Positions 821-56,268 of a stretch of DNA of 64,000 nucleotides are shown piece by piece. Position numbers and translations under genes: made by a program. How positions within the stretch are numbered: position 1 is the stretch's first letter; every line of letters starts with the position of its first letter. The notes under the pieces are model-generated. The model was given only the letters and a program-made list of their open reading frames with translations. It searched no databases and had not been told where the DNA came from. Origin of the DNA: a virus (taxonomy: Duplodnaviria > Heunggongvirae > Uroviricota > Caudoviricetes); the IMG/VR virus record IMGVR_UViG_2579778606_000002, positions 27,981 through 91,980 of that record. The stretch is one strand, 5' to 3'.

Positions 821-843
821 AAAAGCCCCGGCCAGGCCGGGGC
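821..843 (-). terminator. Rho-independent terminator-like GC hairpin (gccccgg..ccggggc) with flanking A/T tract
   Basis: 7-bp GC stem seen directly; A-run on plus side gives U-tract on minus strand, 9 nt downstream of the Rha-fragment stop. Confidence 0.5.
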
Positions 844-851
844 ATCACACT

Positions 852-1064
852 TCAAGTTACGATCCAATCATTACCGACTGCATCCGCCGTCGATAAATCG
901 ACTTCCCGGATCTGGCATCCATTAATACAAAACCATCCGGTAGTAGAGCAATTATCAGGCCAGATCCATATACCAACACTCCATGCTTTACGGCAGCACA
1001 CTTCAGCCTGTCCTTCCCTGATTTTTTTTACCGCCTGCATGATGTCCATCACTCGCCTCCCCAA
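852..1064 (-). pseudogene. C-terminal part of Rha-family paralog in a shifted frame (apparent frameshift)
   Basis: Translation aligns with the C-terminus of the intact paralog 53648..54589 (both end ..DWIV[TS]) but is out of frame with ORF 1049..1756. Confidence 0.35.
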
Positions 1065-1756
1065 CCGATCACCTGGAATTGTCCCATCCTTGGGTGATAC
1101 CAGCGTTTTCCTCGGTGTTCAGCCTCCGACATCATCAGGGTAAAGGCATTCATGAAGGGAGATAAGGCCACAATAGTACGACGCGACAATACCCCCTCTG
1201 GCGTCAAAAACTCATGCGTATCTGTGGGAATCCGGTAAGCGTTGACCAGGTTACGGCATTTGGCTTCAGTCAGGCCACATTTCGCCGCTAACTGGCGATA
1301 GCCAATGTAACCTTCTGGCATGTTGCCCTTCTTGATCTGCTCGACGGTTTCAGCAACCTGGCTAACCTTTGACTCAACAACATGAAGCCGCTTTTGCTGC
1401 TGAACTGCATTTGCAGCCATTGCAGCGATCATCTCTATTTCGGTCAACGGCTGGCGTACTTGTTCTTCCAGTTCGCGCCAGCGGTCCACCAGCCGGGCGG
1501 TGAATTCGGGAGAGAGCTGCGCAACGACGATAATGCTATCGCGCTTGCCTTGCTCGCCTTCGAAGACGTAAGCCTCAACACTACGTCGTAGTCCTAAGTT
1601 ATTGATTTTTTCGAAAACCTCAATTTGAGGACGAACAATAACGCCACCTTTGTCTAATGTCTCAATAGTGCGTTTCACATTGTCATGACGTTTTCCCACC
1701 AGCTCCGCGATCTCAATGCTGGTCATTGATGGCTTTTCGAGAATGCAGATATCCAT
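1049..1756 (-). CDS. Rha-family phage regulatory protein (antirepressor-like), truncated relative to paralog
   Basis: N-terminus MTSIEIAELVGKRHDNVKRTIE and block FEGEQGKRDSIIVVAQLSPEFTARLVDRWRELE typical of Phage_pRha; paralog at 53648..54589. Confidence 0.65.
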   Translation of the reverse strand: MDICILEKPSMTSIEIAELVGKRHDNVKRTIETLDKGGVIVRPQIEVFEKINNLGLRRSVEAYVFEGEQGKRDSIIVVAQLSPEFTARLVDRWRELEEQVRQPLTEIEMIAAMAANAVQQQKRLHVVESKVSQVAETVEQIKKGNMPEGYIGYRQLAAKCGLTEAKCRNLVNAYRIPTDTHEFLTPEGVLSRRTIVALSPFMNAFTLMMSEAEHRGKRWYHPRMGQFQVIGWGGE

Positions 1757-1980
1757 CAGTGAGACTCCGCAATGCCGGGATTGGTAATATTGCGATACCA
1801 GGGATTGGTGTTTGGTTGTGGGGAAGTAGAGAAACGACCAGTGAGAACGCCATACTGATCAGGGATCAGAGAACGGGCTTCTTTTTCAGTTGCGGCAATT
1901 GCGAAGTGATCGCAGTGTTTTTGCAGGGAGTGAAAACGCCAGATGAATTCTGGACGTGAGCAAGGATTGGCATTAACCAT
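1756..1980 (-). CDS. icd: Icd-like small protein (host cell division inhibitor-like) preceding Rha gene
   Basis: 74-aa ORF, stop/start overlap with downstream Rha gene; motif EFIWRF..EKEARS shared with paralog 54589..54804; arrangement as P1 immI. Confidence 0.45.
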   Translation of the reverse strand: MVNANPCSRPEFIWRFHSLQKHCDHFAIAATEKEARSLIPDQYGVLTGRFSTSPQPNTNPWYRNITNPGIAESH

Positions 1981-2014
1981 AGTTACGGCCTCACTAACAG
2001 GTTTAACAACCTGC

Positions 2015-2200
2015 TACCCGCTGCTAAACAGGTGGCAGGACGTGACGGGGTTAGCAGACTGGCGTTAGTGAAACCAGCAGGCCGAAGCCTCCCCATCACG
2101 CCCCACCATAATTTGGGCGTAACGCGGTTTTACGGACACAAAAATACCGCAATATCGGATATCTGCGGTTGTCCGCACTAACATTCAGGCTGCTAAACCC
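2015..2200 (-). ncRNA. Candidate c4-like antisense RNA / translational control region of icd-rha copy 1
   Basis: Direct boxes CTGCTAAAC near 2021 and 2190 with inverted copy GTTAGCAG near 2050, about 45 nt upstream of icd start; analogy to P1 c4. Confidence 0.25.
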
Positions 2201-2308
2201 GGTCGCAGAATTTGCTACGACGGCATGAATATAAGCCTGAACATTAGAAAGATCAACAGAATTTTTATCAGATGCTGTTTTTTAGTGACGATATAAATCA
2301 TACATTCT

Positions 2309-2340
2309 TGATTAGAAACATCAATTTAATTTTCTAACAT
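2309..2340. promoter_or_regulatory. 32-bp operator-like palindrome (TGATTAGAAA..TTTCTAACAT)
   Basis: Member of a recurring inverted-repeat family seen at about six loci; lies upstream of icd-rha copy 1. Confidence 0.5.
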
Positions 2341-27601: not shown

Positions 27602-28486
27602 ATGGTAGATGACAAAAAAGGCTTTCTGAATGTTGAGGAAATATCAGGGAATACCGGAGAAATCCACAGCTTAAAGCCTAACAATAATAGTACTATTCAG
27701 CCGATAGCTTTGTTGCGGCTTGGGGTGTTTGTTCCCACATTGAAATCTACCAGTGTTGCTTTACGTCGCAAGAACGCCGGTTTAACTAACTCCACTGATG
27801 CGACAGAAGAGCTGTCCAGCCTGAAGATTGTAGAGCAGGAAGGGTATCAGGGTATTGAGATTCATGGTCCACGCCTGGATATGGATACTGATTTTAAGGT
27901 GTGGATAGGCATTACATCTGCATTGTTTGACTATAAACCAGATAATGATGGTGTGATCACCCTGACATTCTCTGAATTTGTGGATCGTTGCGGTTATCCA
28001 AGGAAGCGGCTGTCCAAGGCTTTTCGCAAGAGCATTGGCGACTCTCTAACGCGTATTCAGCAGACGTTGCTGAAGTTCAACTTGCCCACCAGCAAAGAAC
28101 ATGTTCGTTATATCCAGATGAATTTATTGGCATTTAGTGAACTTGATACTGAAAATGACATTATAAGAATCCAACCGCAGAAGCAGTTGTCTGAGTTGTA
28201 CTACGTTGACTATAAGCGAATATTGAAGCTCAAAATGCTCGATAAACTTGGCAGGAAAGAGACAGCCAAGGTGCTTTATACGTTTTTCGAAGCGTTACCT
28301 TCAAACCCTGCGCCAGTGAGTATTGAGCGCCTTCGTGCCAGATTGAACCTCAAGTCCTCGGTTAGCGTTCAGAACAGTGTGATTCGTAAAGCCATGAAAG
28401 ACTTAGAAGCTGTTGAATATCTTAAATTTTCAGAGATAAAGAATGGTCGGAAAATAGGTTTCCAGATCCATAAACGAAATCCATAA
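27602..28486 (+). CDS. repA: Plasmid replication initiator RepA (P1 RepA-like)
   Basis: 294-aa ORF with AAGGA RBS; segments QPIALLRLGVFVP and FFEALPSNPAPVSIERLRARL recall P1 RepA; iterons on both sides. Confidence 0.8.
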   Translation: MVDDKKGFLNVEEISGNTGEIHSLKPNNNSTIQPIALLRLGVFVPTLKSTSVALRRKNAGLTNSTDATEELSSLKIVEQEGYQGIEIHGPRLDMDTDFKVWIGITSALFDYKPDNDGVITLTFSEFVDRCGYPRKRLSKAFRKSIGDSLTRIQQTLLKFNLPTSKEHVRYIQMNLLAFSELDTENDIIRIQPQKQLSELYYVDYKRILKLKMLDKLGRKETAKVLYTFFEALPSNPAPVSIERLRARLNLKSSVSVQNSVIRKAMKDLEAVEYLKFSEIKNGRKIGFQIHKRNP

Positions 28487-48250: not shown

Positions 48251-48253
48251 CAA

Positions 48254-48273
48254 AGCCCACCTTAAGGTGGGCT
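48254..48273. terminator. Terminator-like hairpin (AGCCCACC-ttaa-GGTGGGCT)
   Basis: Perfect 8-bp stem 4 nt after the stop at 48250; U-rich flank stronger on the minus strand. Confidence 0.45.
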
Positions 48274-48475
48274 TCGCCAGAAATTATTTTCTGGTATTCA
48301 GAACGCCATTACCGGACTTTGCCTTGACCAAGTATCACAACTGGTTTGACCTGTTATGATAGCTGGTTGCGGGATGTCTGAATTTCTTCAGTCTGCTGCA
48401 TCCTCGAAGGTTTGGTTCAACATGTACCATTCCTTCACTGTCATAATAGTGTACTATTCATGTCCTTGCAAACAC

Positions 48476-53647: not shown

Positions 53648-54589
53648 TTAACTAACAATCCAGTCGGTTGCTGCTATATCTTCTGGCTGCAAATCAATCG
53701 CACAGATCTTACCGTCGCGAATGGTGCGCCAGTTTTTCCGTGAGCCTCTTTCGGGCCATACCCAGACACTTTCAGGCCAGGATGCTCGACGGCATACGGT
53801 TGCATACCCTGTTTTAATCTTCTCTCTGGCGGTATGCAACGACAGGTTTGCCTTTGGGCTATCAGGCACAGGGTGGTGAATGGCCTGAAACAGCCCCATC
53901 CTGGGGTGATACCAGCGTTTGTTGCGTGGTTCTGCCTCCGACATCACCTGCTTAAAGGCTTTCCGGAAGGGGGCCAGGGCCACAATTGAGCGTCGCGCAA
54001 GCAAACCGTCGGGAGTCAAAAACTCATGCGTATCAGTGGGTATCCGGTAAGCGTTAACCAGGTTGCGACATTTGGCTTCAGTCAGGCCACATTTCGCCGC
54101 CAGCTGGCGGTAGCCAATGTAGCCTTCCGGAATATTGCCTTTCTTTATTTGCTCGAGTGTTTCAGCGACCATCGATACTTGTGCTGATACCTCGGCTACC
54201 TGGGCATTTACGGCGTTGATCCGGCGTTCATGCTCAAGATGCATTTGCGCCATTTCAGCCAGGATTTCGGCTTTTGATTTTAACTGTACCCGGGCATTCT
54301 CCAGTTCGCGCCAGCGGTCCACCAGCCGGGCGGTGAATTCCGGAGAGAGCTGCGCGACGACAATGATGCTGTCTCGTTTTCCTTGTTCGCCTTCAAATAT
54401 GTAAGCCTTGGAAAATCGACGAGGGCCAACTGATTGTTTATTTTCAATTTCCACAGATTGTGGAAATTGGATCACACTCTTTTTAGCCAGTGTTTCGATA
54501 GTTCTCTTCACACTATCTTGGCGACTTCCTACCAGTTCCGCGATCTCAATGCTGGTCATTGTCGCTTTTTGAGAGATGGACAGATTCAT
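53648..54589 (-). CDS. Rha-family phage regulatory protein (antirepressor-like), intact paralog
   Basis: 313-aa ORF; N-terminal Phage_pRha-type segment nearly identical to copy 1. Confidence 0.7.
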   Translation of the reverse strand: MNLSISQKATMTSIEIAELVGSRQDSVKRTIETLAKKSVIQFPQSVEIENKQSVGPRRFSKAYIFEGEQGKRDSIIVVAQLSPEFTARLVDRWRELENARVQLKSKAEILAEMAQMHLEHERRINAVNAQVAEVSAQVSMVAETLEQIKKGNIPEGYIGYRQLAAKCGLTEAKCRNLVNAYRIPTDTHEFLTPDGLLARRSIVALAPFRKAFKQVMSEAEPRNKRWYHPRMGLFQAIHHPVPDSPKANLSLHTAREKIKTGYATVCRRASWPESVWVWPERGSRKNWRTIRDGKICAIDLQPEDIAATDWIVS

Positions 54590-54839: not shown

Positions 54840-55050
54840 CGCGTGAGGTTCCAATCTCAATGGCGGTAGCACTGACTGGGTTGGAACTACCGGCGCAAAA
54901 GGGAACCGGCCTGCCTTTCGGCAGCCCAGCCAGCACTACCATTGATCTCTGAGCTAAACGCTACGTATGGCTGTGCGATGGCATGACACAAGAAAAGACG
55001 CTTTCGGCGTCTGTGTCGCCTTTTGCATTATCCGGGGTTCCAATCCCGGC
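54840..55050 (-). ncRNA. Candidate c4-like antisense RNA / control region of icd-rha copy 2
   Basis: Direct boxes GGTTCCAATC at 54847 and 55036 with inverted copy GGTTGGAAC at 54879, about 45 nt upstream of icd start. Confidence 0.25.
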
Positions 55051-55117
55051 ACCCGTTTTTCTAAGGTGCCGTAGAAATATACCCCACGATAATGCCAGGG
55101 CGCAACTGTGTGTTTTC

Positions 55118-55605: not shown

Positions 55606-55637
55606 ATGTTAGAAAACTAATTTATTAATTCAGTCAC
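55606..55637. promoter_or_regulatory. Operator-like half-site ATGTTAGAAAA with degenerate partner
   Basis: Overlaps the ref stop codon; upstream of the small ORF and icd-rha copy 2. Confidence 0.35.
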
Positions 55638-56192
55638 CATCTGATACAACGTCATTTCATCAGCATTGTGCCGCCTGAAATCTGCTTTGCCGCCTATTTT
55701 TCCATCAGCATGAACAGGGACCAACCAGGGGTATTGCTCGCGTATCTCTGCTGGCGCTGCGTGTTGATGGTGCCATTTACACAAAGGGAGAACGTATTTA
55801 TGCGCGTTCTCTGCCGTTCTCCCGAAGATGTGGTGCAGGGATACCACAGGGCTATGCTGTCCGTGCATATGGCAGGCAATGCAGGGGAGAGCACCGATGG
55901 TAGTTTGTATCCGGCGCTCATCTGCTGTGAGTGTTCTGCCTTTCAGGCCGCGTGACGCGCGAGTTTTTTTGACAGGAGCAGAAGCGGCCTTCTCTTTTCT
56001 TCGCTGTTCATATTGCTTCGCTTTTTCAATTTTCTTTTGCCGATATTCAGGCGATGCGGCTTTTTCTCGCGCACGCTGCTGCTGGCGTTGAGCTTGCTGA
56101 AGACGCTTTGCCCTTTGTTCCTCCCGCCATTTCGGATCAGCCAGTTTTTTCAGGGCTTTTTGCGTCTGTTTCTCCCAATAGCTTTGCTTCAT
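55617..56192 (-). CDS. ref: Ref-like recombination-enhancement nuclease (HNH-type core, basic N-terminus)
   Basis: Lys/Arg/Gln-rich N-terminus then LPCIACHMHGQH..HHIFGRTAENAHKYVLPLCKWHH; ATG at 56192 (track start is upstream TTG). Confidence 0.55.
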   Translation of the reverse strand: MKQSYWEKQTQKALKKLADPKWREEQRAKRLQQAQRQQQRAREKAASPEYRQKKIEKAKQYEQRRKEKAASAPVKKTRASRGLKGRTLTADERRIQTTIGALPCIACHMHGQHSPVVSLHHIFGRTAENAHKYVLPLCKWHHQHAAPAEIREQYPWLVPVHADGKIGGKADFRRHNADEMTLYQMVTELIN

Positions 56193-56236
56193 AGAAATAC
56201 CCGGTTTGTCTACATCACCGCTATGGTTGATCAAAT

Positions 56237-56268
56237 GTGTTAGAAAATCAAAATTGATTTTCTAACAC
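56237..56268. promoter_or_regulatory. Near-perfect 32-bp palindrome GTGTTAGAAAATCAA-AA-TTGATTTTCTAACAC (operator candidate)
   Basis: 15-bp arms fully complementary; between divergent ref and the early operon. Confidence 0.6.

Follow-up and report, generated by a model that had tools for sequence, protein, structure and literature searches.

The locus considered here lies on the minus strand, at positions 825-2337, of a 64,000-nucleotide (nt) stretch of the virus record IMGVR_UViG_2579778606_000002 (positions 27,981 to 91,980 of the record); this whole stretch is referred to below as the window, and coordinates are those of the window unless another record is named. Sequence comparison identifies the window as a D6-like P1-family phage-plasmid of Escherichia coli. 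In the direction of transcription, the locus consists of two promoter-like sites, the target boxes a1/b1, the gene for the antisense RNA C4, a second pair of target boxes (a2/b2), icd, a Rha/Roi-type regulator gene, the small gene orf17 and a terminator. Positions 700-2450 share 89% nucleotide identity with Escherichia phage D6, a P1-family plasmid prophage, and 99.8% with E. coli plasmids of roughly 90 kilobases (kb); at least 80% of this region is held by 95 E. coli records, and those listed are all plasmids of about 90 kb. The D6 and RefSeq annotations place a peptidoglycan hydrolase on the plus strand and, on the minus strand, a hypothetical protein of 65 amino acids (aa; orf17 of D6), a 235-aa 'anti-repressor Ant / Rha family' protein (orf18) and Icd (orf19), with RepL further upstream; orf17 is thus a separate coding sequence in both, and the locus itself is known, since the same arrangement is already present in the D6 genome and in RefSeq. 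The evidence assembled below points, with a probability of about 80%, to an intact three-cistron operon of the immI immunity type, in which an apparent frameshift between the Rha-type gene and orf17 is the boundary between two complete genes.

The first cistron, icd (1756-1980, minus strand), encodes 74 aa, and its product is 61% identical to P1 Icd (expectation value, E, 8e-27) and matches phrog_1426 (E 7e-39). Its stop codon overlaps the start of the following gene (TGATG at 1756), the Rha/Roi-type regulator gene (1049-1756, minus strand; 'Ant' in the D6 annotation), which encodes 235 aa and ends with a TGA codon at 1051-1049. An earlier, sequence-only reading of the window had correctly placed the stop of this frame at 1049, a second open reading frame (ORF) at 852-1064 and a paralogue with a single 313-aa frame at 53648-54589, and it had proposed that a frameshift splits the Rha gene, whose C-terminal domain would continue out of frame in the second ORF. 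That proposal is contradicted by the relatives of the 235-aa protein. Its N-terminus matches the Pfam family Phage_pRha (PF09669; 36.8 bits, cut-off 29.9) over profile positions 1-91 of 91, and it is colinear with, and 75% identical to, the 235-aa Roi of lambdoid phage PhiR49_2 over residues 1-232 of 235 (233 alignment columns), both proteins ending in FQVIGW plus 2-3 residues. Because the free-standing PhiR49_2 Roi, whose gene has its own terminator directly behind it, is of the same length and colinear to the C-terminus, 235 aa is the native length for a Roi-type protein. The upstream piece is therefore not shorter than its intact homologues, and, as judged from these alignments, the Rha-family gene is complete and not split.

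The ORF at 852-1064 (minus strand), which is in frame -1 with respect to the Rha ORF, would encode 70 aa if read from a TTG start, but the real start of orf17 is likely the ATG at 1049-1047, which gives a gene at 852-1049 (minus strand) for the 65-aa counterpart of D6 orf17. The last codons of the Rha-type gene (GGA GGC GAG TGA) provide a GGAGG sequence 6 nt before this ATG, which shares its A with the upstream TGA stop, so that the junction TGATG is identical to that between icd and the roi-type gene. Both the GGAGG-N6-ATG arrangement and the TGATG overlap are invariant in 23 of 23 sequences (the window, D6, a RefSeq plasmid and 20 IMG/VR contigs). The predicted fold leaves the orf17 ribosome-binding site unpaired, and folding of the junction RNA revealed no significant structure (z +1.1) and no fold that would enforce coupling. 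When the DNA of the locus is aligned with that of the paralogue, conservation is good through the ...MG-FQ codons and is followed by sharp divergence, the linker being unalignable with a net difference of 16 nt; as the linker has been replaced and DNA similarity collapses 3' of it, the pairwise comparison of the two loci does not reduce to a single indel. In D6 and 17 other relatives, moreover, a TGA stands in the orf17 frame two codons ahead of the ATG; no single indel can therefore join the two frames, which excludes a simple sequencing shift as well as programmed frameshifting.

These observations bear directly on the alternatives that the sequence-only reading had left side by side, namely a sequencing indel, a pseudogene and a genuine two-protein arrangement, of which the data favor the last. 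The idea that a sequencing or assembly indel in the record faked a frameshift in a truly continuous gene could draw on the run of eight A residues found 20 nt into orf17 (1029-1022), since such homopolymers are error-prone; however, the same junction occurs in the independently sequenced D6, in 20 IMG/VR contigs and in about 109 plasmids, and the upstream TGA of D6 and most relatives and the replaced linker of the paralogue are equally at odds with it, so that next to no credence is left to this explanation. The A8 run corresponds to orf17 codons 8-10, is interrupted in relative L019 and has a differing neighborhood in the database singleton P0007, and it could be a hotspot of slippage or of sequencing error. 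Programmed -1 ribosomal frameshifting near the end of the Rha-type gene, which would yield a fused long form beside a short form in the manner of the two Ant forms of P1, would be in keeping with the -1 frame of orf17, with a frame that extends 5 codons upstream of the ATG without a stop in the window and 22 codons in L003-L005, and with the existence of a fused form as the paralogue. Yet no slippery heptamer of the form X XXY YYZ was found, the junction is without significant structure, and in D6 and the 17 relatives the TGA would halt a shifted ribosome two codons before the ATG; frameshifting of this kind is very hard to credit. As for a pseudogene, the break is common to diverged relatives (D6, the 20 IMG/VR contigs and the approximately 109 plasmids), the downstream piece has a start signal of its own in GGAGG-N6-ATG, and the upstream gene is complete.

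A subtler form of the pseudogene explanation holds that an ancestral fused gene, consisting of Rha plus the C-domain, was broken, and that orf17 is its decaying 3' piece, drifting and still open by chance. Several properties of orf17 fit such a decay and weigh against the reading of orf17 as a constrained gene. The ratio of non-synonymous to synonymous substitution rates (dN/dS) in the D6 clade is 0.66, not significantly below 1 (for comparison, 0.23 in the roi-type gene and 0.045 in icd); the three codon positions contribute about equally to the variable sites (11/10/10 in the D6 clade); the allele set requires no fewer than 9 synonymous changes and 23 non-synonymous ones, where neutrality would give about 6.6 and 25.4, respectively; and, at the divergence of the D6 clade, an open frame carries no significance by itself. 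Moreover, frameshifted orf17 alleles exist in public data (L041, P0003 and P0007, that is, one plasmid and two database singletons), although they may be assembly errors, and the allele of the window carries a Cys codon (TGC) at orf17 codon 19 (993-995), inside an otherwise constant C-R-R motif, where 10 of 11 alleles and all distant family members have Arg. Compared with every other copy, L041 (NZ_CP031917.1, 45487-46480) lacks 2 nt at the end of the roi-type gene and 1 nt in orf17, and this record represents either a decayed copy or a long-read assembly error.

On the other side, the upstream gene ends exactly where a free-standing Roi ends, the start signal and the stop/start overlap are invariant, and the orf17 frame is intact in 20 of 20 close IMG/VR relatives and, at 84-98% amino acid identity, in one piece in nearly all of the approximately 109 plasmids of Escherichia, Salmonella and Shigella that carry it. 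The protein of the window matches phrog_7385, a stand-alone phage family, over 65 of 65 positions (E 6e-45). Ten residues (I10, G13, C18, R20, W23, W28, P31, D56, D61 and W62) are invariant across orf17, the fused domain of the paralogue and two distant stand-alone homologues; all ten are kept in orf17, only 1 of the 23 non-synonymous events hits them, and elsewhere the stand-alone homologues are the sole gene under C4 control. The alignment thus clearly indicates that the domain has been constrained over the long term, and decay of a broken gene is improbable as an explanation of orf17. At the shorter range, codons 29, 34 and 45 each show three or four different residues, and the orf17 data fit relaxed constraint as well as they fit a mixture of purifying and diversifying selection; that orf17 is drifting toward loss within the D6 clade is considered unlikely, if slightly less so than the decay of a broken fusion.

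The intact operon also rests on the control region. The C4 gene (2028-2113, minus strand) matches Rfam RF01695 over the full model, 1-87 (70 bits, cut-off 45, E 1.4e-11), and the leader that precedes it (2176-2234, minus strand) carries the upstream targets a1 (UUAGCAG, 2196-2190) and b1 (GUUAGUG, 2182-2176), with a match to the Rfam family c4-a1b1 at 2182-2234 on the same strand (RF03163; 53.9 bits, gathering cut-off 46.7). C4 itself bears box b' (CACUAAC, 2070-2064), located in a hairpin loop, and box a' (CUGCUAA, 2057-2051), both read on the minus strand, and it is followed by the downstream targets (1989-2027, minus strand), a2 (UUAGCAG, 2027-2021) and b2 (GUUAGUGA, 1998-1991, of which GUUAGUG occupies 1998-1992). 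The targets a1 and b1 are exact complements of the C4 boxes and lie at -83 and -69, while a2 and b2 lie at +1 and +30; b2 overlaps the icd Shine-Dalgarno sequence GAGG (1992-1989), 8 nt ahead of the icd ATG at 1980. The suggestion of an icd-Rha immunity-type module with a c4-like RNA is accordingly upheld by both Rfam matches and by the similarity of 1869-2256 to the c4-icd region of P1 and P7 described below. The short boxes that had prompted it, CTGCTAAAC at 2021-2029 and 2190-2198 and the inverted copy GTTAGCAG at 2050-2057, are correctly positioned and correspond to a2, a1 and a', respectively, but the b set, which covers the icd ribosome-binding site, had been missed; likewise, C4 does not overlap the icd ribosome-binding region, as had been thought, but has its gene about 50 nt further upstream, on the strand that also encodes icd, and would act on b2 by pairing in trans.

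Exact complements of the a and b boxes occur both upstream and downstream of C4 in copy 1 and copy 2 of the window, P1, P7, D6 and L037. In a comparison of 30 C4 loci, drawn from window positions 2028-2113 and the relatives L001-L038, two a-types (a' CUGUCAA and CUGCUAA) and five b-types (b' CACUAAC, CACAAUC, CGUAAGU, CAUUCGU and CUUGAGU) were found in seven combinations, and both targets were exact in 28 of the 30. The covariation of the boxes at all three places argues strongly, on comparative grounds, for a functional antisense pairing. The C4 of the window is a hybrid of a P7-type a box and a P1-type b box, as are those of L002, L017, L018 and L029, and the comparison suggests that the specificity boxes are combinatorial among D6-like plasmids, which appears to be new. 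Within 54859-55069 of the window (minus strand), the second, fused copy has a C4 of its own (76.7 bits), with unrelated boxes (a' GUUCCAA, b' CCUUUUGC). Just upstream of it, a match to the Rfam family isrK (54991-55069) includes exact a1 and b1 complements; therefore, isrK takes the role of the a1b1 leader in a second, orthogonal C4 system of the element. Elsewhere in the window, at 48252-48437 on the minus strand, there is a strong match to the small RNA family sroH (RF00372; 113 bits against a cut-off of 80).

The region was aligned to P1, whose record annotates c4, a1, b1, a2, b2, P51a/b and Op51, and to P7 and D6; every element of the C4 system of the window falls at its P1 position in this alignment. 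Two sigma-70-like promoters are predicted on the minus strand, an outer one (2297-2324; TTGATG-16-TATGAT), which is the positional analogue of P1 P51a, and an inner one (2228-2256; TTGATC-17-TATATT), the positional analogue of P51b, whose stretch is kept in P1, P7 and D6. The -35 element of the outer promoter is covered by a palindrome, TTAGAAA-N12-TTTCTAA (2312-2337), of which a second copy is located at 56240-56265, just upstream of a 205-aa ORF at 55617-56234 (minus strand); these are the only two such sites in the 64 kb, where none is expected, and the arms, though not the spacer, are conserved in D6. The palindrome is a candidate operator for a repressor of the D6 type. At the other end, a strong intrinsic terminator (825-843, minus strand), formed by eight G-C pairs followed by TTTTT, lies 9 nt past the orf17 stop codon.

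One of the closest known counterparts in organization is immI of P1 and P7 (c4-icd-ant1/2), with which the locus shares the two promoters, a1/b1, C4 and a2/b2 at the P1 spacings, the position of b2 on the icd ribosome-binding site, and icd as a first cistron that overlaps the next; nucleotide identity to the c4-icd region of P1 and P7 across 1869-2256 (c4 and the start of icd) is 90-92%. Every feature of a P1/P7-type immI that can be examined in sequence was thus found, save the antirepressor type: the gene behind icd is of the Rha/Roi type and its product has no significant similarity to P1 Ant1 (BLASTP E 0.36). The window differs further in its third coupled cistron, orf17, in its hybrid box specificity (P7-type a with P1-type b), in the position of repL, which lies upstream of the operon in the window and downstream in P1, and in the C1 operator Op51, whose sequence is not conserved and in whose equivalent place the palindrome TTAGAAA-N12-TTTCTAA is located. 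With orf19-orf18-orf17 of D6 (NC_050154) the locus shares gene order, lengths (74, 235 and 65 aa) and junctions, and the second, fused copy is also present in D6, whereas the orf17 proteins are 91% identical and D6 has a P1-type a box with a b box of its own (CGUAAGU / ACUUACG); the two elements are therefore predicted to differ in immI specificity. The lambdoid roi genes (HK97, HK022 and PhiR49_2; Rha family, PF09669) differ in that they lie beside cro in the immunity region with their own terminator, are not under C4 and have no orf17 behind them. Copy 2 of the window resembles isrK-orf45-anrP of Salmonella Gifsy-1, as an isrK match (59.4 bits) precedes a coupled small ORF and a Rha-type antirepressor-like gene. 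In Gifsy-1, according to the parts of the report consulted (PMC4825925), an upstream small ORF overlapping the antirepressor start was shown to couple translation, and C4 is not mentioned in those parts; copy 2, in contrast, has a C4 RNA between isrK and the small ORF, and its isrK carries the a1/b1 complements.

By analogy with P1, the minus-strand transcript initiated at one or both promoters would run through the leader with a1/b1 and C4, and C4 would be excised from this operon transcript. Pairing would then take place between its a' box (7 nt) and a2 and between its b' box (7-8 nt) and b2, and, because b2 covers the icd Shine-Dalgarno sequence, the b'/b2 duplex, helped by a'/a2, would block translation of icd. 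The three cistrons, icd, the Roi/Rha-type gene and orf17, would be chained by their two identical TGATG overlaps, and through this chaining Icd, the Roi-type protein and the orf17 product would be made only when C4 is limiting, as early after infection or upon derepression. In this scheme orf17 would be a small binding module produced together with the Roi-type protein.

The counterpart of such a module is found in the paralogue (copy 2; 53648-54589, minus strand), a single frame of 313 aa in which the 235-aa protein corresponds to residues 1-237 (67% identity) and orf17 to residues 249-313 (35% identity, E 4e-15), which confirms the C-terminal-domain homology proposed for the ORF at 852-1064; the C-terminus of the paralogue also matches phrog_7385. 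The structural model of the fused paralogue has a mean predicted local distance difference test score (pLDDT) of 60 and was used for the boundary stretch 221-263, where almost all residues are below pLDDT 50 across the domain boundary, and for the order of secondary structures only. An exhaustive HMMER search of 1.84 billion representatives with a three-sequence profile returned seven matches, in which only the fused 313-aa type and the stand-alone proteins P0005 and P0006 were found; with so few matches in so large a set, the orf17 family is narrow at the sequence level. No relatives were found in two scans of GTDB species genomes, and a scan of IMG/VR with a profile of the solo type gave no match. 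P0005 (96 aa, from a Raoultella ornithinolytica plasmid) and P0006 (68 aa) are encoded on plasmid-like contigs of roughly 88-110 kb, directly behind c4-a1b1 and C4 matches that are both above the Rfam cut-offs, with a b2 complement on their own ribosome-binding site and a terminator right after the gene, and neither an icd nor a Rha gene lies within these C4 units (3752-4291 of L036, a Raoultella ornithinolytica plasmid contig, and 3746-4207 of L037, a 90.5-kb Logan contig). The small protein can therefore be the sole cargo of a C4 switch. Taken at the sequence level, the orf17 domain is autonomous in three states, fused in the paralogue, as a coupled cistron in the window and in D6, and as the sole C4-controlled cistron, and this occurrence in fused, split and solo form is ordinary domain shuffling for phage regulators of this kind. 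A natural recombinant, L029 (2128-3198), has a copy-1-type Roi body (...ALSPFMNAFTLMMSEAEHRGKRWYHPRMG) in frame with a copy-2-type linker and C-domain, and it therefore indicates that the paralogous loci exchange segments at the conserved KRWYHP(R/K)MG. The homology suggests that orf17 corresponds, in detached form, to the C-domain of the paralogous antirepressor, an identification that appears to be new.

The sequence and the models of this domain suggest that it is probably a minimal and divergent member of the Tad2/DUF2829 fold, although with somewhat less confidence than is attached to the operon itself. The Pfam family PF11195 (Tad2-like, DUF2829) was the top or near-top full-length, in-register match for five of five members tested, at 11-23.9 bits and with a best E-value of 6e-5 (P0005). 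When the orf17 family was compared by hhalign with SPO1 Tad2 and 16 homologues, taken from the supplement of Yirmiya et al. (bioRxiv 10.1101/2023.05.01.538930) and aligned, the 17 Tad2 domains matched end to end over 63 columns (Prob 71.8%, P 3.5e-5), with a score of 28.1 that none of 200 column-shuffled controls reached (maximum 17.6). The AlphaFold model of orf17 (pLDDT 70.9) consists of a helix, four strands and a short helix, an order repeated in the model of the paralogue C-domain, and among structures in BFVD the best named matches were Tad2-like and DUF2829 proteins (E 0.1, probability 0.80-0.96). Tad2 (Thoeris anti-defence 2; PF11195; SPO1 Tad2, PDB 8SMF) likewise has an N-terminal helix, antiparallel strands and a short C-terminal helix in this order, shares the motifs G-x(2-4)-V-x-R-x-x-W and S-x-x-D-x-x-x-x-D-W-x-I-V with the orf17 family, and occurs alone or as the C-terminal domain of longer proteins. 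Of the main ligand contacts of SPO1 Tad2, W25 and D79 align with W23 and D56, both invariant.

Several results count against this assignment. The PF11195 gathering score of 25 bits was reached by none of the five members (orf17, 15.6; P0001, 16.5; P0005, 23.9; P0006, 14.0; paralogue C-domain, 11.0), and the orf17 model rests on an alignment of six sequences at a pLDDT of 71. In a Foldseek search of the PDB, Tad2 chains made up 11 of the top 31 matches but at non-significant values (E 1.1-5.8, template modelling score 0.38-0.44), and when the PDB was searched by sequence, with the family profile and with P0005 as queries, only chance matches and no Tad2 were returned. The other two of the four main contacts are lost, N26 being replaced by S/P/G and W73 by V/I/Y/F, and the insert of about 20 residues between beta2 and beta3, which carries helix alpha2 and forms the Tad2 V-dimer interface, is missing from the orf17 family, in which, moreover, the GWNGKG motif of Tad2 is replaced by W-[PS]-x-G-x-W. 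PADLOC gave no match for orf17, the fused paralogue, P0005 or P0006, and these comparisons do not establish orf17 as a member of the functional Tad2 sponge family, which is defined by homotetramers sequestering gcADPR or another immune signal. P1 Coi, a 69-aa inactivator of C1, was rejected as a relative of orf17 (hhalign Prob 0.1%), and P1 Ant1 has no orf17-like domain.

With regard to function, the most favored, though still tentative, proposal is that orf17 works alongside the lysis-lysogeny switch or upon it, being a partner, an oligomerization module or a sensor of the antirepressor, because the domain is fused to a switch protein in the paralogue and is always found in C4 operons; this is held to be somewhat short of an even chance. 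A role as a nucleotide-signal sponge against host defence early in infection is possible but rather unlikely. Its stricter form, in which orf17 and the paralogue C-domain would be true Tad2-family sponges for a host immune nucleotide signal of the Thoeris, CBASS or Pycsar type, produced early since C4 has not yet accumulated, is more doubtful still. It would agree with the remote Tad2/DUF2829 homology, with the invariant counterparts of the W25 and D79 contacts, with the many different signals bound by the Tad2 family (bioRxiv 10.1101/2025.08.24.671296), and with the hypervariable codons 29, 34 and 45, which could reflect an arms race. Nevertheless, the substitutions at N26 and W73, the missing dimer-forming insert and the fold scores below significance speak against it, and the fusion to a DNA-binding Roi-type protein together with the strict association with C4 operons points to the lysis-lysogeny circuit instead. 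A speculative proposition with a low chance of being correct is that the Tad2-like domain, whether joined to the antirepressor, coupled with it or replacing it under C4 control, is a nucleotide-signal-binding module wired into the lysis-lysogeny switch, which would either soak up a host immune second messenger when the switch operon is expressed or sense such a messenger.

For annotation, the intact three-cistron operon means that neither a pseudogene flag nor an assembly-error flag is warranted at this locus, and that base-exact annotation of C4 and of its target boxes is possible. Among D6-like plasmids, the mix-and-match C4 specificities (two a-types and at least five b-types) predict a map of immunity relations between co-resident P1-family plasmids. 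That a probably DUF2829-like domain can be the sole cargo of C4 appears to be new, and the Tad2-like cargo is the one mildly new element of the system, a testable lead and not a result. If the domain does sense a host signal, the plasmid prophage would be able to link antirepression and its own escape to the defence signalling of the host, and orf17 offers a cheap and well-defined test case for sponge-like domains in lysis-lysogeny circuits.

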